Sequence record: PP400785
From: Escherichia phage FL08
Length of the DNA stretch: 64,000 bases
Direction: 5' to 3' (one strand)
Below are positions 5,909 through 37,579 of this stretch, one piece after another. How positions within the stretch are numbered: the first letter of the stretch is position 1; each line of letters begins with the position of its first letter. The translations under genes and the position numbers were made by a program. The notes beneath the pieces were generated by a model. That model had not been told where the DNA came from. It did not search any database and was given only the letters and a program-made list of their open reading frames with translations.

Positions 5909-7039
5909 TTATGGATAGGTATAGATAATACCAGTTTCTAAAGCAGTTTTATGAATGATGTATCCATTACGTGATTCTTGGACATCAACTTCTGGATAGT
6001 CTTTCATCATCTTCTGAAGAGTGTAACGATGCAGGTAGTATTTACTATCTGGATCTTCAGTTTTCCAATCTTTACCTTCTTCAGTCATTTTTTGGATTTC
6101 ATCCATGACCCACCAACCGCACCAGATGTAAGCTGAGCTACGGTGTGGAAGAGGATGAACATAAGGTAATTCACCTTCTGGTTCTGGAGCAACTTTATCA
6201 GTCACTTGAACTTGACCTTCTGCCGTAATAGTTTTGCTATCATAATCAGCAGCAGTAACAGTCGCAGTAACTTCAATAGTTTGACTTCCAATAGATGAGG
6301 TATCAACGGTATATACATTAGTTGACCCTTCTACAGGAGAAGAATCTTTCTTCCATGAATACTCAATTTGCGCTTCTTCTGGAGCATCAGTAACATTAGC
6401 AGTAAATGTAGCCGAAGCATCTTGTTGAACGTTAATAGAAGGAGGAGTCAATGTAACCTGTGGATTCATTGTCTTCTTATTAACTGTTAATGATACTTCA
6501 TTAGAAGTAACTTCCTTTTCATTGTAATTTTCAGCAGTTACTTGGGCTACGCATTTAATTCTTTTTACTCCACTTGTAGTTGGAGTATAGCTAAATGTAG
6601 AGTTAGTTTCTCCACCAACTTGTGAATCATCTACATACCACTGATACGTAGCAGATGCACCTGGTGGCTGCGAAGCTAAAGCGGCAGTAAATTCAATAGC
6701 TGTTCCGATTACTCCAGCGTCAGGGCTATTAGGAGTTACAGCTAAGGTGGTCGTTTGTGTCTTATTTTGAACTGTGATAGTTGTAGTAGCTTCTGCTGTT
6801 TCAGCTTCAGCTTCTGGAACTGTATTTGTTGCAACTACTTTAATAGTCTTTTGACCGGCAGGTCCTTTTAATACATAACTAAAAGTTGCTTCAGCTCCAT
6901 CTTGTGGAACATCATCTACAGTCCAAGCATAGGTAATAGGTCCATCTCCAGTTTGACCACTGGGTGTAGCAGTAAACTGCTGAGTCTGATCTATAACTCC
7001 AGTAGGTGTTTTAGGAGTTATATCAACTGTAAAAGCCAT
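5909..7039 (-). CDS. hoc: highly immunogenic outer capsid protein Hoc
   Basis: 376 aa as in T4 Hoc; repeated Thr/Val-rich beta-type segments consistent with tandem Ig-like domains; ATG start. Confidence 0.85.
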   Translation of the reverse strand: MAFTVDITPKTPTGVIDQTQQFTATPSGQTGDGPITYAWTVDDVPQDGAEATFSYVLKGPAGQKTIKVVATNTVPEAEAETAEATTTITVQNKTQTTTLAVTPNSPDAGVIGTAIEFTAALASQPPGASATYQWYVDDSQVGGETNSTFSYTPTTSGVKRIKCVAQVTAENYNEKEVTSNEVSLTVNKKTMNPQVTLTPPSINVQQDASATFTANVTDAPEEAQIEYSWKKDSSPVEGSTNVYTVDTSSIGSQTIEVTATVTAADYDSKTITAEGQVQVTDKVAPEPEGELPYVHPLPHRSSAYIWCGWWVMDEIQKMTEEGKDWKTEDPDSKYYLHRYTLQKMMKDYPEVDVQESRNGYIIHKTALETGIIYTYP

Positions 7040-7048
7040 AAGTTATCC

Positions 7049-7729
7049 TTATTTTAATGTTACGAAAGAAGAATTGCGTGTTTCACGAATTAAAACTGAT
7101 CCGTCGCGGTTAATGTAATAAATTAAGCTAAATAAAGTTTGGTGTGCTGACGCATGTTCAAAACTAGTTGGGTGAGATTTCCAATCCGGAGTTTCAGCAA
7201 TCCATTGATAAATCCACCAAGGAACAGTACAGAATCCTGGATTTTTTCCAATCAGCTGAAGATTCGGACTAAAGTTTTCCGGAAGAGTAAATACAGACGG
7301 CTTTTCAGATTCAACAATCTCAGCTACAGCCTGTTCGAATTTTTCTTCAACAAAAGGAGTATCTTCAATCAAAACTGAGGTATTTTCAGGAATTTTATCC
7401 GTTTCTACTACTTCAATTTTAATGTCAGATTTAACCGGAGAATCAATCAGAAGTGCTGCTTCTGGATTGACTTCTTCATCGTCATATTTTAATCCCTCTG
7501 CGGCATCAGCAGCATCAATTAGGTCTTTAATAGATAACCCATCAGTCTCTGGCATAGGTTCACTAGCGAGCTTCTGGAGGGCTTCTTCAATATCAACAAC
7601 GATATTATCAAAAGATTTATTCTTTTTGACCTTTATACCAAACTGTTCAGCATATTCAGCTAATTTAGCTTTAGCTTCTTTGTTATCATCAAGAGCCTTC
7701 AGCTCTGCAATATAATCTTTATCTATCAT
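7049..7729 (-). CDS. inh: Inh, inhibitor of prohead protease
   Basis: 226 aa, adjacent to hoc as in T4; acidic protein; ATG start. Confidence 0.7.
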   Translation of the reverse strand: MIDKDYIAELKALDDNKEAKAKLAEYAEQFGIKVKKNKSFDNIVVDIEEALQKLASEPMPETDGLSIKDLIDAADAAEGLKYDDEEVNPEAALLIDSPVKSDIKIEVVETDKIPENTSVLIEDTPFVEEKFEQAVAEIVESEKPSVFTLPENFSPNLQLIGKNPGFCTVPWWIYQWIAETPDWKSHPTSFEHASAHQTLFSLIYYINRDGSVLIRETRNSSFVTLK

Positions 7730-7742
7730 AATATTTCCTCAG

Positions 7743-7750
7743 TATAAATA
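7743..7750 (+). promoter_or_regulatory. late promoter (TATAAATA) for uvsW
   Basis: Exact TATAAATA 30 nt upstream of the uvsW ATG. Confidence 0.7.
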
Positions 7751-7779
7751 TAGATATATTTATTACATGGTATTTAGAC

Positions 7780-9291
7780 ATGACTGACATTAAAGTACAT
7801 TTTTATGATTTTAGTCACGTGAGAATTGACTGTGAAGAAAGTACATTTCATGAACTCCGTGATTTCTTTAGCTTTGAAGCTGATGGGTATCGTTTTAATC
7901 CGAAATACAAATATGGCCACTGGGATGGACGAATCCGTCTTTTAGATTATAATCGTCTTCTTCCATTCGGCTTAGTCGGGCAAATTAAAAAGTTCTGTGA
8001 TAACTTTGGCTATAAAGCCTGGATTGACCCACAAATTAACGAAAAAGAAGAATTATCAAGAAAAGATTTTGATGAATGGCTTTCTAAATTAGAAATCTAT
8101 TCAGGAAATAAAAGAATTGAACCACACTGGTATCAAAAAGATGCAGTGTTCGAAGGATTAGTTAATCGTCGTAGAATTCTTAATCTTCCAACATCTGCAG
8201 GTAAATCTTTAATTCAAGCTTTGCTTGCGCGATATTATTTGGAAAATTATGAAGGTAAAATTCTTATCATTGTTCCAACAACTGCTTTAACAACTCAGAT
8301 GGCTGATGACTTCGTTGACTATCGTTTATTCAGTCATGCAATGATAAAGAAAATAGGTGGAGGAGCATCAAAAGATGATAAATATAAAAATGATGCACCA
8401 GTCGTTGTTGGTACATGGCAAACTGTAGTAAAACAACCGAAAGAATGGTTCTCACAGTTTGGAATGATGATGAATGATGAATGCCATCTTGCTACAGGAA
8501 AAAGTATTTCATCCATCATATCAGGTTTAAATAACTGCATGTTCAAATTCGGTTTGTCTGGTTCATTACGTGATGGCAAAGCTAATATCATGCAGTATGT
8601 TGGGATGTTTGGTGAAATATTTAAACCAGTAACGACTTCTAAATTAATGGAAGATGGACAAGTAACTGAGTTAAAAATTAATAGTATTTTTCTTCGCTAT
8701 CCCGATGAGTTCACTACTAAATTAAAGGGAAAAACTTACCAAGAAGAAATAAAAATTATTACTGGGCTCAGTAAAAGAAATAAATGGATCGCTAAATTAG
8801 CTATTAAGCTTGCGCAAAAAGATGAAAACGCTTTTGTCATGTTTAAACATGTATCGCATGGTAAAGCTATTTTTGATTTAATTAAAAATGAATACGATAA
8901 AGTTTATTACGTATCAGGGGAAGTTGATACCGAAACCCGCAATATAATGAAAACCTTAGCTGAAAATGGTAAAGGAATAATTATAGTAGCGAGTTATGGT
9001 GTATTTTCTACTGGTATTTCAGTTAAAAATCTGCATCATGTTGTTTTAGCGCACGGCGTTAAATCAAAAATCATTGTATTACAAACAATCGGTCGTGTAT
9101 TACGTAAGCATGGTTCTAAAACAATCGCAACGGTCTGGGACCTCATAGATGACGCGGGCGTAGTTTCTAAATCAAAAACATCTTCTAAAAAATACTCGCA
9201 TTTAAACTATCTTTTAAAACATGGACTTGATCGTATTCAGCGTTATGCTGATGAAAAGTTTAATTATGTGATGAAAGAGGTTAAACTTTGA
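7780..9291 (+). CDS. uvsW: UvsW ATP-dependent DNA/RNA helicase
   Basis: 503 aa; Walker A PTSAGKS and DECH box; late promoter 29 nt upstream; ATG start. Confidence 0.93.
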   Translation: MTDIKVHFYDFSHVRIDCEESTFHELRDFFSFEADGYRFNPKYKYGHWDGRIRLLDYNRLLPFGLVGQIKKFCDNFGYKAWIDPQINEKEELSRKDFDEWLSKLEIYSGNKRIEPHWYQKDAVFEGLVNRRRILNLPTSAGKSLIQALLARYYLENYEGKILIIVPTTALTTQMADDFVDYRLFSHAMIKKIGGGASKDDKYKNDAPVVVGTWQTVVKQPKEWFSQFGMMMNDECHLATGKSISSIISGLNNCMFKFGLSGSLRDGKANIMQYVGMFGEIFKPVTTSKLMEDGQVTELKINSIFLRYPDEFTTKLKGKTYQEEIKIITGLSKRNKWIAKLAIKLAQKDENAFVMFKHVSHGKAIFDLIKNEYDKVYYVSGEVDTETRNIMKTLAENGKGIIIVASYGVFSTGISVKNLHHVVLAHGVKSKIIVLQTIGRVLRKHGSKTIATVWDLIDDAGVVSKSKTSSKKYSHLNYLLKHGLDRIQRYADEKFNYVMKEVKL

Positions 9292-9980
9292 ATTATAAAT
9301 TAATATATGATAATTTAATTAATAGAGCCCAGAATCGGGCTCGCCTTAATGGATACACTGAAACACATCATATAATTCCTAGATGTATGGGTGGTACAAA
9401 TGATAAGTGTAATTTAGTAGAACTAACGGCTGAAGAACATTTTATAGCCCATAAACTTTTAGCTAAAATTCATCCAAACCATTACGGTATAATTAAAGCT
9501 GTTATATGTATGGGGATGAATTCAAATACTCATGAAAGACACGTCAATAAATCTTACGCATGGGAACGTCGTAAAATGGCAGAACTTCAATCCGGCGAAG
9601 GTAATCCATTTTACGGAAAACACCATACGGAAGAACATAAACAATATATGTCAAAACTCATGAAAAGTCGTCCAATTACATGGGGAAATAAAATTAGTAA
9701 AACTAAAAGAATGAACCCAACGAAATGGACTGAAGAAGCTAAAAGATTACATTCAATCAATCAATCGGGTAAAAATAACGGCATGTATGGAAGGAAACAT
9801 TCCGCTAAATCTATTCAGAAAATTAAAGATAACATGCCAGATAATTCAGGAGCTAATAACCCAGCTGCTAAACCTATAGAAGTAAATGGTGTTAAGTATA
9901 AATGTATGAAAGATGCTTCTAAAGCTACTGGATTATCAATGTACAAACTAAGAATACTTAGAAAAACAGTTAATTTATAA
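9288..9980 (+). CDS. HNH-family homing endonuclease (mob-like), TTG start overlapping the uvsW stop
   Basis: The first 60 aa (NYKLIYDNLINRAQNRARLNGYTETHHIIPRCMGG...ELTAEEHFIAHKLL) are clearly homologous to the HNH ORF at 36938..37579. The first in-frame ATG is only at codon 33, so the TTG at 9288 with AAGAGG 6 nt upstream is the likely start. Confidence 0.7.
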   Translation: MNYKLIYDNLINRAQNRARLNGYTETHHIIPRCMGGTNDKCNLVELTAEEHFIAHKLLAKIHPNHYGIIKAVICMGMNSNTHERHVNKSYAWERRKMAELQSGEGNPFYGKHHTEEHKQYMSKLMKSRPITWGNKISKTKRMNPTKWTEEAKRLHSINQSGKNNGMYGRKHSAKSIQKIKDNMPDNSGANNPAAKPIEVNGVKYKCMKDASKATGLSMYKLRILRKTVNL

Positions 9981-9996
9981 GGGCTTCGGCCCTTTG
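9981..9996 (+). terminator. UUCG-loop hairpin between the HNH gene and uvsW.1
   Basis: GGGC-UUCG-GCCC then UUUGG; short U-tract, so it may be an attenuator or processing/stability hairpin rather than a full terminator. Confidence 0.45.
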
Positions 9997-10005
9997 GAGA
10001 AAAAG

Positions 10006-10236
10006 ATGTTACTAGAATTTAAACAATTTCTTTATGAAGCTTCTATTGATGAATTTATGGGTAAAATTGCCTCTTGTCAAACATTAGAAGGTCTAGAAGA
10101 ACTTGAAGCTTATTACAAGAAAAGAGTTAAAGAAACTGAATTAAAAGATACTGATGACATCTCTGTGAGAGATGCTTTGGCAGGAAAAAGAGCTGAATTA
10201 GAAGATTCAGACGATGAAGTAGAAGAAAGCTTTTAA
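10006..10236 (+). CDS. uvsW.1: UvsW.1-like small acidic protein
   Basis: 76 aa from the ATG at 10006 (GGAG 6 nt upstream); the ORF track starts at a TTG at 9994. Position and size match T4 UvsW.1. Confidence 0.6.
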   Translation: MLLEFKQFLYEASIDEFMGKIASCQTLEGLEELEAYYKKRVKETELKDTDDISVRDALAGKRAELEDSDDEVEESF

Positions 10237-10291
10237 ATTAAAAAAGGCCCAACCAAAAAGGAAGGGCCAAAACTATAGACTAAAGGTCACA

Positions 10292-10459
10292 CTATAGCAA
10301 AAGTTGTGTTTCATTTAATTGTTCTTCCGAACTTTCTGAAACTGGTAGTTCTTTAATGTAATTATAACAAGGCCCAGGATGTACAGGACCTTTGTCTGTT
10401 TCAACAACCAATGCAGAATCGATTGGAGTTTTACAGACAACGCAAATCTTATCTGACAT
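10292..10459 (-). CDS. small Cys-containing protein (uvsY.-2 position)
   Basis: 55-aa ORF MSDKICVVCKTPIDSALVVETDKGPVHPGPCYNY... not in the ORF track (<60 aa); GAGGAG SD and a TATAAATA late promoter immediately upstream. Confidence 0.45.
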   Translation of the reverse strand: MSDKICVVCKTPIDSALVVETDKGPVHPGPCYNYIKELPVSESSEEQLNETQLLL

Positions 10460-10486
10460 GATTGTCTCCTCTAAATTATATATATC

Positions 10487-10494
10487 TATTTATA
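10487..10494 (-). promoter_or_regulatory. late promoter (TATAAATA) upstream of the small Cys ORF and uvsY region
   Basis: The - strand reads TATAAATA, 28 nt upstream of the ATG at 10459. Confidence 0.55.
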
Positions 10495-10714
10495 TAACTC
10501 TCATATGCATATCAATGCCCATATCTTTAGAATAAAAATATTCATCAAGATATCCGGCAAATTTTCCTTTAATATAAAGGACATCTTCACCGCACGGGTG
10601 GTCGGCCAGGATACGAATATCCTGACGCTTAAGATTATGCTTTTTCATTAAGAATTGAATTTCCGTTTCAAATTCTTCTTCATAATTAAAAGCATCATCA
10701 ATGCTATATCTCAT
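10490..10714 (-). CDS. hypothetical protein (uvsY.-1 position)
   Basis: 74-aa ORF, ATG start overlapping the uvsY stop. Confidence 0.55.
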   Translation of the reverse strand: MRYSIDDAFNYEEEFETEIQFLMKKHNLKRQDIRILADHPCGEDVLYIKGKFAGYLDEYFYSKDMGIDMHMRVI

Positions 10715-11127
10715 TATTTTCCAGCCTCAAATGCCCGCATGTCTTGAATATGCTTAATAGCAAATCCACGTGATTTAATAGCATCAAGAGCTCCGCTACA
10801 GAAATCTAATAAAATCCCCCAATACTGTAACGAGGTATCAACCTTTAAAACATCCTTATCAGCTGATAGAACTGTCTTCATTTCTGATTTCTCGTAACGA
10901 TCCATACTAAATTCATCACCATCTCCTCGTCCCGAGTAGTAGTCTAATTTAGCTTTAAGAGCAACTTTCTTTTGCGCGTCAATTCTAAGCATTTCCTTTT
11001 TAATACTTGAATGCTTATTAAGCCATTTACTATATAACATCACATTATTAGCTGCTTCATACTGTAATTTAGTCGAATCTATAAACACATCTTTCTTCAA
11101 TTCTTCTTGAAGATCTTCTAATTTCAT
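10714..11127 (-). CDS. uvsY: UvsY recombination mediator protein
   Basis: 137 aa as in T4 UvsY; MotA-box middle promoter upstream. Confidence 0.88.
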   Translation of the reverse strand: MKLEDLQEELKKDVFIDSTKLQYEAANNVMLYSKWLNKHSSIKKEMLRIDAQKKVALKAKLDYYSGRGDGDEFSMDRYEKSEMKTVLSADKDVLKVDTSLQYWGILLDFCSGALDAIKSRGFAIKHIQDMRAFEAGK

Positions 11128-11167
11128 ATTGTTCTCTATTCAATTGTTATTGGATGGACTTAGATTC

Positions 11168-11195
11168 ATTATACCACGTTTTAACGTGAAGCATT
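11168..11195 (-). promoter_or_regulatory. MotA-dependent middle promoter for uvsY
   Basis: The - strand reads aaTGCTTCA (MotA box), a 13-nt spacer, then TATAAT; about 40 nt upstream of the uvsY ATG. Confidence 0.65.
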
Positions 11196-11592
11196 ATACT
11201 CTGTTACTGGAAGCCAGTTGTAGTTTTATTTGCTCAATATCATCGGGGTTATCGATGACCGAAAAGCGTATTTCTACTATCAGAGTATAATCATCATAAA
11301 CTGGTATTACATTAACTGCTAATTTATCAATACGTGGCTCATAGTTTCTTACTGCGCTTTCGATATTACGCTCAACTGTGTCAGCAGTAAGAGGAGTCAT
11401 ATTTTCAAAAAGCTGGTCTGATAAATCACATCCAAATTCAGGGTCAAACGGTCTTGAACCTTTTCTTGTTGTAATAATTCCCAAAAGACTGTTTTTAATT
11501 GACCTTAATCCAAGTGATCTGGAAACATCTTTGTTCCAATCCATTTTCATTTCCGGGTCAATATCAGAATAAAGCTTATTAATATTTGCCAT
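11194..11592 (-). CDS. 25: baseplate wedge protein gp25
   Basis: 132 aa as in T4 gp25; in the 25-26-51-27-28-29-48-54 baseplate cluster. Confidence 0.85.
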   Translation of the reverse strand: MANINKLYSDIDPEMKMDWNKDVSRSLGLRSIKNSLLGIITTRKGSRPFDPEFGCDLSDQLFENMTPLTADTVERNIESAVRNYEPRIDKLAVNVIPVYDDYTLIVEIRFSVIDNPDDIEQIKLQLASSNRV

Positions 11593-12218
11593 TATAGTAA
11601 CTCAAAGAACTCTTTGAGGCCTCTTATTACATGAGCATGGGTTTTTCCACACTCTGGACATTTAATTGGAACAGCCAAATAAACGGTAGGCTTTAAAAGC
11701 ATATCTTTTATAGCTACAATATCTGACTCTGTGATGATAGAATATAAATCTTCCAGTTCTTTTTCATTTAAGTCTTCAACTGGAATGCTTTCCCCGTTAG
11801 CATGAATCGTTTCTATACATGATACTATCATGTGGGCTATATTTTTATCATCAAAAATTTTAGGGTATCGGAATTTAATTTTAATGTCACCCAGTGTATA
11901 CCAGAGGTCTTCTGGTGCATCTATTTGTGTATGTAATAGATTTATATGGGTTGGTATTTCAGTTCCACAGGTGCACTTCCAGGAGTTTTCGTGATTAACT
12001 TCACCGAGAGAATGTGCCCATAAATGAATCAACAATAGTTCTGATTCTTGGCGGTTTAAATCTTTTGCATTTGTGCAGTCTTTGATTAGCTTTTTAACAA
12101 TTACTTCTACGGAACCATTATTTTTGGCAGTAATAAGTTCTAGATATTCTTTAAGCGTGAATGCGCGACAATTGATTATTTTAGAACCAACTCTCACATC
12201 AAATTTGTATTCATACAT
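11592..12218 (-). CDS. 26: baseplate hub protein gp26
   Basis: 208 aa as in T4 gp26; divergent from gene 51 with a late promoter in the intergenic region. Confidence 0.8.
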
Positions 12219-12239
12219 ATTTAGCTCCTTTATTTATCA

Positions 12240-12251
12240 TATTTATAAATA
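12240..12251. promoter_or_regulatory. back-to-back late promoters in palindrome TATTTATAAATA (gene 26/25 leftward, gene 51 rightward)
   Basis: TATAAATA on + at 12244-12251 (18 nt before the gene 51 ATG) and on - at 12240-12247 (22 nt before the gene 26 ATG). Confidence 0.65.
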
Positions 12252-12268
12252 GAATAAAAGGAGCATCT

Positions 12269-13018
12269 ATGGCAAACATTATTCGTTGTAAATTACCAGA
12301 TGGTGTTCATCGTTTTAAACCATTTACGGTAGAAGATTATCGAGATTTTTTGTTAGTTCGAAACGATATAGAGCATCGGTCACCACAAGAACAAAAAGAA
12401 ATAATTACTGATTTAATTGATGATTATTTTGGAGACTATCCGAAGACTTGGCAACCATTTATATTTTTGCAGGTATTTGTAGGTTCAATAGGTAAAACTA
12501 AAGTACCAGTCACATTTGTATGTCCAAAATGTAAAAAAGAAAAGACAGTTCCATTTGAAATATATCAAAAAGAATTAAAGGAACCTATTTTTGATGTAGC
12601 TAATGTTAAAATTAAATTAAATTTTCCTTCTGAGTTTTATGAAAATAAAGCAAAGATGATTACTGAAAATATTCATTCTGTTCAAGTAGATGAAATATGG
12701 TATGATTGGAAGGAAATTAGCGAATCAAGTCAAATAGAACTTGTTGACGCCATCGAGATAGAAACATTAGAAAAAATTCTTGATTCAATGAATCCTATTA
12801 ATTTAACATTGCATATGTCCTGCTGTGATAAGTATGTAAAAAAATACACTGATATAGTAGATGTGTTTAAGCTATTAGTTAACCCAGATGAGATATTTAC
12901 TTTTTATCAAATTAATCACACACTCGTAAAAAGTAATTATAGCTTAAATTCAATAATGAAAATGATTCCTGCCGAGCGCGGATTCGTATTAAAACTGATT
13001 GAGAAGGATAAACAATAA
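12269..13018 (+). CDS. 51: baseplate hub assembly protein gp51
   Basis: 249 aa as in T4 gp51; Cys pairs CPKCKK...CCDKY; late promoter 18 nt upstream. Confidence 0.8.
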
Positions 13019-35762: not shown

Positions 35763-36941
35763 TTAAAAGTATTTTTTAAAACTCATCATAACTTTATCAT
35801 CAACATCATTATCAATCTGTGCAACAAGGTAAGATGACAGTTCTACTTCTTGTGGCGCGGATTGAACATTATCAGAATTAAGATATTCACGAATCCAAGG
35901 ATACGGATGTTTAACCGGAGCATCGGTAATTGGGCATGGAAGACCACACTGTTTCATACGAGATACAGTTAAGTAATCAATAAAGCTCCACATGCTATTT
36001 GTATTTAATCCAGGAACATCGCCGTCTTTAAATAAATGAACTGCCCAATCTTTTTCTTGGCGGTTAACTTCCATGAAAATATCAACTGCTTCTTGTTCAC
36101 ACTCTTGAGCAATTTTAACCCATTCATCGCCATCAGTACCAGATTGAAGTTGACGAATAATATATTGGGTGCCTTTAAGGTGAAGCTGTTCATCGCGTGC
36201 AATGAACTTCATAATCTTGGCATTACCTTCCATGATTTCCATGTTTTTATGGAAGTTAAAGGTACATGCGAAAGATACATAAAAACGAATAGCTTCCAAT
36301 GCGTTGATTACATGCAAACAGAGGTAAAGAGATTTCATTAGCTCATGCTTCCAATATGTCTCATGCTCAATAGCATCTTCAATAACGTCTTCGTCTGCAT
36401 TAATTTCTTTTTGGTATTCGATATCAGCTTTAGCGTTTTCCCAATAACGAGTTTTAATCAGAACATCATCATAATAACGTCCAATGGATTCAGCACGTTT
36501 CATAATAGCTTCATCTAATACAATCTCATCAAATACCTTCGATGGATCAGTATAAAGATTTCGCATGATATGTGTATATGAACGGCTGTGAATAGTTTCA
36601 CTAAAAGTCCATGTAGCAACCCATGTATCAAGACTCGGGTCTGAAATTAATGACATAAGTACAGCAGATGGCGCACGACCCTGAATGCTATCCAAAAGTG
36701 ATTGATACTTCAGGTTATTAGTAAAAATATTTTGCTGATACTGAGGAAGCTTATTAAACTGTGCAGCATCCATCATTAAGTTTACTTCTTCAGGACGCCA
36801 AAAAAATGATAAAGATTTCTCAATAAGTTCTTCAAATACTCTATGTCGTTGAATATCATATCGAGCTAAACCCAATCCAGAACCAAAAAACATCGGCTCA
36901 GTCAAAATATTAACAGGGGATGTATTAAAAACTGTACTCAT
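35763..36941 (-). CDS. nrdB: ribonucleotide reductase small subunit, uninterrupted
   Basis: 392-aa continuous ORF, so no group I intron as in T4 nrdB. Confidence 0.92.
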   Translation of the reverse strand: MSTVFNTSPVNILTEPMFFGSGLGLARYDIQRHRVFEELIEKSLSFFWRPEEVNLMMDAAQFNKLPQYQQNIFTNNLKYQSLLDSIQGRAPSAVLMSLISDPSLDTWVATWTFSETIHSRSYTHIMRNLYTDPSKVFDEIVLDEAIMKRAESIGRYYDDVLIKTRYWENAKADIEYQKEINADEDVIEDAIEHETYWKHELMKSLYLCLHVINALEAIRFYVSFACTFNFHKNMEIMEGNAKIMKFIARDEQLHLKGTQYIIRQLQSGTDGDEWVKIAQECEQEAVDIFMEVNRQEKDWAVHLFKDGDVPGLNTNSMWSFIDYLTVSRMKQCGLPCPITDAPVKHPYPWIREYLNSDNVQSAPQEVELSSYLVAQIDNDVDDKVMMSFKKYF

Positions 36942-37579
36942 TTAGAATCCTTAAATTTACATTTATCATAATGCCATCTTAAAGCATTGCCTTTATTAAC
37001 TTTCTTGCCACAATGCGGACAAGGCGGATACTCTGTACCTTGCTTAGTTCTCAAAGAAATCAAATCACGGGTTTCTTTAGTATGAGGAACATCTCTTGTC
37101 GGAGAGATTGTACCATACATCGGATTAAGCACGCCGACTTTAGCAGCAGCTATATTCTTTTTAGCTTCTTCGGTTTTAGGTTTTCTCATGCGAGCTAAAT
37201 GCTCTTTGGTAAATTTCCTTCCTTTAAGGGCTCTACTTATCTTTTCTCTGGTTTCCATAGAAACTTCACGTCCTGTAGCAGCTTCAGATAAACGTCGTCT
37301 ACCTAATTCGTACAGTTGAGAAGAAATTTTATATGAGCGATTTTTACCAGTCAAGCACATTAAACCAAAAGCTTTCTTTAATCCTGGAGTGTCATATATT
37401 TTACATAAAAGCCAATGAGCTATAAAATGCTCTCTACCTGTTAATTCAACTAAATTTTCCTTATCATCAGAACCTCCCATACATTTAGGGATTATATGAT
37501 GTGTCTCTTTATATTCTAGTAAAGATTCCCGAGCCTGAGCTCGGGAAATTAGGTCGTTATAGATTTTTTGATAATTCAT
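36938..37579 (-). CDS. mobE: HNH homing endonuclease inserted between nrdA and nrdB
   Basis: 213 aa; HNH region ...THHIIPKCMGGSDDKENLVELTGREHFIAH; ATG overlaps the nrdA stop and its stop overlaps the nrdB ATG; same position as T4 mobE. Confidence 0.75.
   Translation of the reverse strand: MNYQKIYNDLISRAQARESLLEYKETHHIIPKCMGGSDDKENLVELTGREHFIAHWLLCKIYDTPGLKKAFGLMCLTGKNRSYKISSQLYELGRRRLSEAATGREVSMETREKISRALKGRKFTKEHLARMRKPKTEEAKKNIAAAKVGVLNPMYGTISPTRDVPHTKETRDLISLRTKQGTEYPPCPHCGKKVNKGNALRWHYDKCKFKDSK

Follow-up and report, generated by a model that had tools for sequence, protein, structure and literature searches.

In T4, the gene of the GIY-YIG endonuclease SegE lies between inh and uvsW, and its target is uvsW. 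For I-TevI and for mobE of Aeh1, hairpins sequester the ribosome-binding site. T4 MobE is a free-standing HNH homing endonuclease encoded between nrdA and nrdB (Wilson & Edgell 2009, PMC2790892; PMC2988022). The T4 mobE gene is promoterless, its start overlaps the nrdA stop, and the enzyme nicks the neighbouring gene of T2 (PMC2988022, PMC2790892). The gene described here, at the other end of uvsW, is essentially an ordinary and already known one, which fits the well-described pattern of the T-even free-standing homing endonucleases.

The window analysed is a stretch of 64,000 nt of Escherichia phage FL08 (record PP400785), read as a single strand, 5' to 3'. Sequence analysis confirmed the ORF at 9288-9980 as a real and intact piece of selfish DNA, a free-standing HNH homing endonuclease gene of predicted activity, located between uvsW and uvsW.1 in the following arrangement:

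7049-7729, minus strand: inh; the next gene is uvsW, at 7780
7743-7750, plus strand: T4-type late promoter consensus TATAAATA found by pattern search, 30 nt upstream of uvsW
7780-9291, plus strand: uvsW helicase gene, 503 aa; its stop codon TGA (9289-9291) overlaps the endonuclease start
9288-9980, plus strand: HNH mob-like free-standing homing endonuclease gene, 230 aa, 693-nt CDS, TTG start; activity predicted
9981-9992, plus strand: hairpin GGGCTTCGGCCC with a UUCG loop, which follows the endonuclease stop here and the uvsW stop in T4
10006-10236, plus strand: uvsW.1, 76 aa, ATG start, with GGAG at 9996-9999

The endonuclease frame is not disrupted, and the catalytic and DNA-binding parts are all present. 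It had been proposed that segE is missing from this phage and that T4 carries no endonuclease at the 3' side of uvsW, and both statements hold: uvsW directly follows inh with no ORF in the gap, where T4, T6 and LH2 have a 618-nt ORF, and genome comparison finds no endonuclease ORF 3' of uvsW in T4. The downstream flank, on the uvsW.1 side, is 98-100% identical to T4. The sense of novelty conveyed by the earlier note was, on the other hand, misplaced, this gene being already annotated, TTG start included, in T6 and many public genomes. It is recorded as a homing endonuclease in T6 (NC_054907, 110699..111391; MH550421, T6ORF179), in Yersinia phage PST under the names 'mobD' and 'MobE', in ACG-C40 as 'MobE', in HY03 and in others, and the copies of all these phages, as well as those of SYGD1 and KFS-EC3, share the 693-nt CDS and the TTG start overlapping uvsW, with protein identities of about 98-99.6% among those compared and no substantive difference. 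T6 has segE upstream of uvsW, whereas the FL08 window does not. Among about 500 Tequatrovirus records, 48 carry the gene (about 10%), and no paper on an endonuclease gene at the uvsW/uvsW.1 junction was found in the literature.

The 230-aa protein is modular. An HNH nuclease occupies its N-terminal part, NUMOD3 repeats form a linker, and a helix-turn-helix domain like that of I-TevI lies at the C-terminus; the coding segments are:

9360-9452, plus strand: HNH catalytic motif, residues 25-55 (E-T-H-H...N42...H51...H55)
9567-9842, plus strand: NUMOD3 repeats or extended linker, with the best Pfam stretch at residues 94-122
9864-9971, plus strand: predicted C-terminal helix-turn-helix DNA-binding module, I-TevI-like

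The HNH, mob-type identity assigned earlier is borne out by the NUMOD3 match (7.6e-14; 51.8 bits against a cut-off of 20.4 bits), by PHROG 655 'homing endonuclease' (3.9e-60) and by the invariance of the HNH residues H28, N42, H51 and H55 in 80 homologues, H27 being also present. An AF2 model (pLDDT 88.6) predicts a beta-beta-alpha arrangement, with strands at residues 25-28 and 43-46 followed by a helix at residues 48-61; taken with the sequence, it agrees with the H-N-H catalytic motif of the HNH (beta-beta-alpha-Me) superfamily, in which a His general base lies on the first strand, an Asn ahead of the second and a metal-binding His on the next helix. The Pfam HNH score, 16.2 bits, is below the gathering cut-off of 21.4, and the HNH matches in whole-model fold searches were weak. 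Towards the C-terminus, a second repeat (GxxNxMYGxxHS, residues ~157-185) aligns to I-TevI, residues 157-216 match the I-TevI DNA-binding domain by sequence (PDB 1i3j, E 0.006), Foldseek returns the same domain (prob 1.00, E 0.053), and the match to PF20987 (I-TevI_DNA-bd) is weak (E 0.029). Similarity in sequence and predicted fold to I-TevI 130C thus points to a DNA-binding domain of the I-TevI type, composed of a NUMOD3 linker and a helix-turn-helix. The likeness to I-TevI (PDB 1i3j/1t2t) covers the C-terminal 60-70 residues, by sequence and fold, and the NUMOD3-type linker repeats; the catalytic domain of I-TevI is, however, GIY-YIG and the enzyme is intron-encoded, while the FL08 protein is HNH and is not intron-encoded.

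Paralogy with the ORF at 36938..37579, between nrdA and nrdB, had been claimed on the basis of the first ~60 residues, and indeed 41 of these 60 are identical, as counted from the BLASTP alignment (E 4e-32, 38% identity over 183 aa); the mobE-family alignment suggested as a check gave a tblastn match to the T4 mobE region with 42% identity. Homology and domain layout thereby place the protein, as a prediction, among the T-even 'mob' free-standing HNH homing endonucleases. The protein of the mobE position has a Cys-rich C-terminus in place of the I-TevI-like C-terminal domain. The strong N-terminal similarity and a 'RAQxR' hairpin common to both genes raised the idea of a recent gene conversion, which was rejected, as the first 180 nt are 63-80% identical, a level not above that to orthologues of other genera. 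With T4 MobE the FL08 enzyme shares the N-terminal HNH motif and NUMOD3 repeats, the organisation as a promoterless cassette behind a host gene with a start overlapping the upstream stop codon, and a GC-rich hairpin in the 5' coding region, placed alike in the two genes. It differs in its location at uvsW/uvsW.1, with another presumed target and a predicted activity, in its UUG start where mobE has AUG, in belonging to the late uvsW unit and not to the nrdA transcription unit, and in a hairpin without a U tract.

Comparison of the uvsW 3' flank with genomes lacking the ORF, as had been suggested, mapped the insertion to the last codons of uvsW. The empty sites are clean in T4, LH2, L015 and L016. 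Three features describe the junctions:

9120-9287, plus strand: divergent uvsW 3' tract, ~170 nt and ~24% divergent, a candidate co-converted or cleavage-immune segment
9271-9291, plus strand: recoded upstream copy of the uvsW tail, ATGAAAGAGGTTAAACTTTGA (MKEVKL*), which holds AAGAGG and the TTGA overlap
9963-9980, plus strand: ancestral uvsW 3' end and stop, AAAACAGTTAATTTATAA (KTVNL*), forming the final 18 nt of the endonuclease ORF

The T4 counterpart of the uvsW tail is ATGAAAACAGTTAATTTATAA (MKTVNL*). The endonuclease ORF hence takes its end and its stop codon from the ancestral uvsW tail, while the recoded copy closes uvsW and contains both the Shine-Dalgarno sequence and the TTG; in TH40 and SP18 a 22-nt direct repeat flanks the gene. 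Orthologues at this junction were found in Tequatrovirus, Dhakavirus, Gaprivervirus, one Klebsiella phage and one Morganella phage. Tentatively, and with slightly less confidence than would be needed to favour it, the lineage may be a specialist of the uvsW/uvsW.1 junction in at least five Tevenvirinae lineages, inserting by duplication of the last ~18-22 nt of uvsW. The recoded upstream copy would then finish uvsW and become the Shine-Dalgarno sequence and UUG or AUG start of the endonuclease, and the downstream copy would provide the end of the endonuclease ORF, with the former uvsW stop as its stop codon, so that the original context of uvsW.1 would be preserved. The outcome would be a seamless chain of translationally coupled genes, in which the flanking repeat would permit precise excision and the adjoining divergent uvsW tract would mark the target of the enzyme.

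Homing endonuclease insertions within host coding sequence, those of MobA with gene 60 and of Aeh1 mobE, were reportedly treated by Bonocora et al. 2011 and Friedrich et al. 2007. As in the cassette of T4 MobA and the gene 60 bypass, and in Aeh1 mobE within nrdA, an endonuclease gene lies within the coding sequence of a host gene; sequence carried by the cassette keeps that gene functional and alters the neighbouring sequence (PMC2988022). In FL08, by contrast, the insertion touches only the last 5-6 uvsW codons, which are duplicated and recoded, the host gene is not split in two, and translational bypass is absent. The idea that an insertion once split a UvsW-HRDC helicase into uvsW and uvsW.1, leaving a 'genes-in-pieces' scar, found no support and no fused form: a phmmer search with UvsW.1 against 1.84 billion representatives gave 26 matches without any helicase-UvsW.1 fusion; the longer matches either joined UvsW.1 to a cytidylyltransferase-like region or were noise.

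Between 9120 and 9273, uvsW differs from T4 at 23.4% of positions, against a background of 1.8% (P 1.6e-29), and is as divergent as its counterpart of another genus. The allele is near-invariant in 9 genomes that carry the gene (HEG+) and different in 4 that do not (HEG-). Exactly 48 records have a tract at least 95% identical, the same number as carry the gene; four partial recombinants exist, LH2 among them, and outside these and the 48 HEG+ records none exceeds ~80% identity, so that no donor lineage emerged. One-sided divergence is also seen in the sole Dhakavirus pair compared (PSD2002 and IME281). The tight linkage of tract and gene is a candidate signature of co-conversion or immunity. 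A divergent tract is not a universal requirement, since the uvsW 3' ends of HEG+ and HEG- Gaprivervirus phages are 96% identical; the consensus 'VKPKS..KKKYVHLN' is kept in HEG+ genomes of other genera and lost from the Tequatrovirus HEG+ allele, and the tract may be no determinant of immunity at all, just foreign DNA that came in together with the gene. T4 SegE offers a parallel as a second free-standing endonuclease tied to uvsW, whose insertion site is adjoined by a divergent uvsW patch (7780-7900), but it is of the GIY-YIG family, its gene lies at the other end of uvsW, and the window does not contain it.

The location of the endonuclease behind a late gene, put forward in the earlier note, agrees with the promoter search: the sole late-promoter consensus on this strand upstream of the endonuclease gene precedes uvsW, and no further plus-strand TATAAATA was found by pattern search between 7750 and 9288. 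A promoter of its own was rejected on this ground and because sigma-70-like matches numbered 10, against 14 expected from shuffles. Within the coding region lies one further element:

9325-9342, plus strand: GC-rich hairpin GAGCCCagaaucGGGCUC, codons 13-19, z -3.0

Its position is homologous to that of the internal hairpin of the mobE-position gene. An internal terminator, as in T4 mobE, was considered and is left doubtful, because the hairpin has no plus-strand U tract and the scan flags the minus strand only. The region 9270-9310 folds only weakly (-1.9 kcal/mol, z -0.15), and a hairpin masking the ribosome-binding site, of the kind known from I-TevI and Aeh1 mobE, was rejected on this ground.

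The TTG start claimed to overlap the uvsW stop is seen in the sequence as TTGA, with TTG at 9288-9290. The AAGAGG said to precede it is present, at 9275-9280, but the spacer is 7 nt and not 6; in the same way, the first ATG is late as described, but it is codon 34, inside the HNH motif, and not codon 33. An earlier start is excluded by an in-frame TAA at 9282-9284, two codons upstream, and no GTG or TTG occurs between codon 1 and codon 34; the UUG at the uvsW UGA, with AAGAGG ahead, is the only possible full-length start, and initiation there would yield the N-terminal peptide MNYKLIYDNLINR. TTG and AAGAGG are invariant in 9/9 Tequatrovirus copies. The internal ATG had been named as the alternative should the N-terminal residues not be conserved with mob-family proteins; they are conserved across an alignment of 80 homologues, and M1, Y3, Y7 and L10 are invariant among orthologues. 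In four other lineages the orthologues at the junction begin at the homologous stop-overlapping codon, with the same 4-nt uvsW overlap, ATG being used in Roth16 and Rgz1 and TTG in PSD2002 and TH40. The conserved N-terminus, the catalytic His upstream of the ATG and the usage of the overlapping codon in orthologues support TTG as the predicted translation start, and it is plausible that a weak start and translational coupling to uvsW keep expression low.

Two other ways of translating the ORF can be set against this start. Initiation at codon 34 would give a 197-aa protein and leave 33 upstream codons untranslated; it would use a canonical start codon, and RefSeq annotates the SP18 orthologue as a CDS of 600 nt that begins at the internal ATG. 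Codons 1-33, however, specify a conserved N-terminus (MNY..IY..L) together with H27 and H28, the first histidines of the HNH motif, and only three of these codons vary (7 and 26 synonymous, 22 E/G), two orthologues carry ATG exactly at the position of the TTG, and the internal ATG sits within a C-M-G-G motif with no purine-rich Shine-Dalgarno sequence seen by inspection just 5' of it. We consider this start very improbable, and the SP18 annotation is flagged as truncated. As the ORF overlaps the uvsW stop and is offset by -1 from the uvsW frame, a -1 shift of ribosomes finishing uvsW might produce a UvsW-endonuclease fusion. Yet the in-frame TAA leaves just two codons where a shift is possible, GTT AAA CTT TGA, read in the uvsW frame, holds no slippery heptamer of the X XXY YYZ type, and the ATG starts and Shine-Dalgarno sequences of orthologues point to independent initiation; with a likelihood close to nil, the fusion was discarded on these grounds.

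The gene might also be defunct or domesticated, no longer mobile, and kept by linkage or by a service to the phage, such as excluding markers of co-infecting relatives or acting in DNA metabolism beside UvsW. The copies are highly similar, and the pN/pS of ~0.05, at pS up to 0.15 in 9 Tequatrovirus copies (27 synonymous and 9 nonsynonymous variable codons; an IMG/VR pattern scan for a population sample gave 4 loci only), which indicates purifying selection on the protein, would fit a role beneficial to the host as well. Patchy presence is likewise compatible with vertical inheritance and recombination, and T4 I-TevIII is a precedent of a defunct endonuclease that persists (PMC2790892). Against this stand the catalytic residues and DNA-binding modules, all intact; the one-sided divergent tract in two genera, a classic signature of homing and co-conversion; the orthologues at the same junction in five lineages, which suggest repeated site-specific invasion; and a degenerate remnant in UFV-AREG1, expected under a cycle of gain and decay. 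Loss of mobility is therefore judged improbable, if less so than the alternative modes of translation. The free-standing, gene-end location, with presence/absence polymorphism among close relatives, is, in sequence comparison, as expected of the T-even 'mob' free-standing endonucleases. We regard it as probable that this is a selectively maintained HNH gene of the mob kind, expressed late via uvsW at a low level from UUG, and homing into HEG- phages. It would be co-transcribed late with uvsW and translated through termination-reinitiation at the UUG; the enzyme would nick or cut the uvsW 3' end or the uvsW/uvsW.1 junction of HEG- phages in mixed infection, and through recombinational repair the recipient would acquire the gene along with the divergent uvsW tract linked to it, which would resist cleavage, a case of intronless homing.

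As a discovery the gene is minor, because both it and its TTG start are already in GenBank/RefSeq for T6 and dozens of relatives. Its value is modest and lies in an uncharacterised Mob-type enzyme with HEG+ and HEG- partners (T6-type and T4) and a candidate target in the last ~170 nt of uvsW. With such clear partners and so narrow a candidate target, the gene would lend itself readily to mapping a new nicking specificity of the HNH type, to testing UUG-dependent translational coupling as a way to throttle a nuclease, and to following how SegE and the uvsW/uvsW.1 endonuclease may compete for the two ends of uvsW.

The window is a segment of a T-even (Tequatrovirus) genome, in which positions 8800-10400 are 99.3% identical to phage T6 and positions 7100-12400 are 98-100% identical to T4, two short patches excepted. 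The genes surrounding the HNH homing endonuclease ORF are arranged as follows:

5909-7039, minus strand, hoc
7049-7729, minus strand, inh
7780-9291, plus strand, uvsW
9288-9980, plus strand, the endonuclease ORF, 230 codons
10006-10236, plus strand, uvsW.1
after uvsW.1, minus strand, uvsY.-2, uvsY.-1, uvsY, 25 and 26

For uvsW.1, two starts are in use: TTG 9994 (80 aa) in the RefSeq annotation of T6 and in a mechanical ORF list, and ATG 10006 (76 aa) in the PST, HY03 and T4 records. The ATG, preceded by GGAG at a distance of 6 nt, is the more likely start.

The endonuclease gene is already annotated and is not new. An identical CDS of 693 nt, beginning at the same codon, is annotated in T6 (NC_054907, 110699..111391, 'homing endonuclease'; MH550421, T6ORF179), in Yersinia phage PST ('mobD', with the note 'MobE'), and in ACG-C40 ('MobE'), HY03, SYGD1 and KFS-EC3; 48 of about 500 Tequatrovirus records carry it. 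Literature searches found no paper characterising the gene, and a 2010 review of T4 mobile elements does not list a uvsW/uvsW.1 endonuclease because T4 lacks it.

The protein is assigned, from its domain matches, invariant residues, structural model and similarity to MobE, to the free-standing, modular HNH homing endonucleases of the Mob type, with a predicted layout of HNH domain, NUMOD3 repeats and helix-turn-helix domain. Pfam detects two NUMOD3 repeats (7.6e-14), an HNH match below threshold and a weak match to the I-TevI DNA-binding domain; PHROG 655 'homing endonuclease' matches at 3.9e-60, and the NCBIfam 'group I intron endonuclease' model gives a sub-threshold match across the linker and C-terminal region. 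The C-terminal 60 residues resemble the I-TevI DNA-binding domain (PDB 1i3j) both in sequence (E 0.006) and in fold (Foldseek probability 1.0, E 0.053). The residues that are invariant in an 80-sequence alignment (Y3, H28, P31, G36, N42, L46, H51, H55 and L58) lie, in an AlphaFold model of mean pLDDT 88.6, on a beta-beta-alpha unit (strands 25-28 and 43-46, helix 48-61) that has the predicted arrangement of an HNH motif. The proposed paralogy with the HNH gene between nrdA and nrdB of the same window (the mobE-position gene) is borne out, with 38% identity (E 4e-32) and 41 of the first 60 residues identical by count; in T4, the best tblastn match is the mobE region. Recent gene conversion with this paralogue was considered and is unsupported.

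The TTG at 9288-9290 overlaps the uvsW stop codon TGA (9289-9291), as described in the earlier note, and a TAA in the ORF frame at 9282-9284 precludes any start further upstream. The description was correct but for two off-by-one details: AAGAGG (9275-9280) lies just upstream of the TTG, with a spacer of 7 nt instead of 6, and the first ATG, the next canonical start, is indeed far inside the ORF, at codon 34 instead of 33. The stretch preceding this ATG is conserved in the 80-sequence alignment and contains both the N-terminal pattern MNY..IY..L and the catalytic H27/H28. Four other lineages have an orthologue, 54-70% identical, at this uvsW|uvsW.1 junction too; they are represented by Klebsiella phage Roth16, Escherichia phage PSD2002 (Dhakavirus), TH40 and SP18 (Gaprivervirus) and Morganella phage Rgz1. 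In each of them the gene begins at the homologous codon, with a 4-nt overlap with the uvsW TGA; this codon is TTG in PSD2002, TH40 and SP18, and ATG in the other two phages. The nine Tequatrovirus copies compared are all 693 nt long, with invariant TTG and AAGAGG and a pN/pS close to 0.05 (pS up to 0.15); within the first 33 codons, two of the three variable codons are synonymous. Comparative sequence evidence thus supports the TTG well as the start. Translation from the internal ATG is what RefSeq has for the orthologue of Shigella phage SP18 (NC_014595, 618-1313), a CDS of 600 nt (714-1313); this is most likely an error, since such a start would remove half of the HNH motif, and the complete SP18 ORF, with a TTG overlapping uvsW, encodes the whole motif. 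The public SP18 annotation is probably truncated.

Comparison of the uvsW 3' flank with genomes lacking the ORF, proposed in the earlier note, defines the insertion. In T4, Escherichia phage LH2 and two IMG/VR contigs, the empty-site uvsW ends in ...ATGAAAACAGTTAATTTATAA, and the hairpin GGGCTTCGGCCC comes next. Over its final 18 nt (9963-9980, KTVNL*), the endonuclease ORF consists of exactly this ancestral end, ATGAAAACAGTTAATTTATAA, read in the frame of uvsW, and the hairpin again comes directly after it; the uvsW tail of the window is a recoded copy, ATGAAAGAGGTTAAACTTTGA (KEVKL*), whose changes give rise to AAGAGG and the TTGA overlap. Two further genera share the design. In Gaprivervirus TH40 and SP18, a 22-nt direct repeat (21/22 identical, 692 nt apart) brackets the gene, and VR7 has an empty site with a single repeat copy; in Dhakavirus, the PSD2002 ORF finishes with the very sequence that forms the uvsW tail in IME281, and the PSD2002 copy upstream of the gene is recoded to AAAGAGG...TTTGA. 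The reused end and its recoded copy, recurring across genera, place the element inside the last uvsW codons, where it takes the host stop codon and provides uvsW with a substitute tail.

Escherichia phage UFV-AREG1 has a 146-aa remnant (UniRef A0A173GAE0) that matches the central part of the endonuclease at 85% identity, is missing the front half of the HNH motif and ends in unrelated sequence. It is a decayed copy, in line with the cycle of gain, decay and loss that homing endonuclease genes are expected to pass through. The UFV-AREG1 genome paper gives UvsW as CDS 184 and CDS 186, so that the remnant should be CDS 185. That the endonuclease created the uvsW/uvsW.1 split is unsupported, a fused UvsW-UvsW.1 protein being absent among 1.84 billion representatives searched. 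The UvsW.1 domain (PF11637) is thought to accompany the UvsW helicase; it is N-terminal in the metagenomic proteins P0142-P0146 (287-295 aa), the remainder of which has a weak cytidylyltransferase-like fold match, an unexpected partner for such a domain.

The only late-promoter consensus upstream of the ORF on its strand, TATAAATA (7743-7750), lies 30 nt before uvsW; a pattern search found none on the plus strand between 7750 and the ORF, and sigma-70-like matches are not commoner than in shuffled sequence, so that a promoter of its own is unsupported. A hairpin sequestering the initiation region was not found either (-1.9 kcal/mol, z -0.15), and a -1 frameshift fusion with UvsW was also rejected. 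With no promoter consensus of its own and an open initiation region, the gene is most likely co-transcribed with the late gene uvsW and would then be expressed at a low level by termination-reinitiation at the UUG. Such an arrangement has been proposed for T4 mobE, where the AUG and the stop of nrdA overlap in UAAUGA; seven of the 12 free-standing endonuclease genes of T4, mobE included, are listed as promoterless cassettes, and the GUG of mobA is noted as the only non-AUG start in the whole free-standing set (PMC2988022). A stable hairpin (9325-9342, z -3.0) has no U tract; its position corresponds, by homology, to that of the hairpin within the mobE-position gene. In T4, the mobE hairpin acts as a partial terminator (PMC2790892). 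The mobE-position gene itself (36938-37579, minus strand, 213 aa) begins with an ATG that overlaps the stop of nrdA in UAAUGA, and at codons ~13-20 it has a GC-rich hairpin of 9 bp followed by UCUUUA, in agreement with the published T4 internal terminator. The neighbouring nrdB (35763-36941) is one unbroken 392-aa ORF and thus has neither intron nor I-TevIII.

Immediately upstream of the insertion, mismatches to T4 reach 23.4% in 9120-9273, against a background of 1.8% (P 1.6e-29), and the downstream flank is essentially T4-identical. All nine gene-carrying genomes examined share an almost invariant allele of this uvsW tract, from which all four examined genomes lacking the gene differ. Exactly 48 database records, the number that carry the gene, are at least 95% identical over 168 nt of the tract; four records, the LH2 class, are at 90-95%, and the rest at about 80% or below. 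LH2 (OQ378934), which lacks the gene, has the carrier type at the equivalent of 9126-9170 and the T4 type at 9222-9273, and is a partial recombinant; it may be a short-tract convertant, resistant without having gained the gene. Within a genus, the uvsW tails of carriers and non-carriers are as different (74-75%) as between genera. The one-sided pattern also occurs in Dhakavirus and is absent from Gaprivervirus (96% identity). The divergent tract is the footprint expected of intronless homing, in which cleavage-resistant neighbouring sequence would be co-converted; it could also be foreign DNA brought in with the gene. The best guess for the target is a site within the final ~170 nt of uvsW, or at the junction, in phages lacking the gene.

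At the other end of uvsW, segE is absent, as had been noted: window positions 7730-7900 hold no such gene and uvsW (7780) directly follows inh (7049-7729), where T4, T6 and LH2 have a 618-nt endonuclease ORF. Divergence from T4 reaches 24.8% over the opening ~120 nt of uvsW (P 1e-25), which looks like a SegE-target or co-conversion patch, and the window UvsW has one additional N-terminal residue. With the segE site upstream and the endonuclease ORF downstream, uvsW has an independent site of endonuclease insertion at either end, and both are occupied in T6. Taken together, the original observation was real and its interpretation correct, and the gene is an ordinary, already annotated T-even Mob-type endonuclease; the anatomy of the insertion and the divergent tract linked to it are useful descriptive additions that make an experimental test straightforward and leave its category unchanged.
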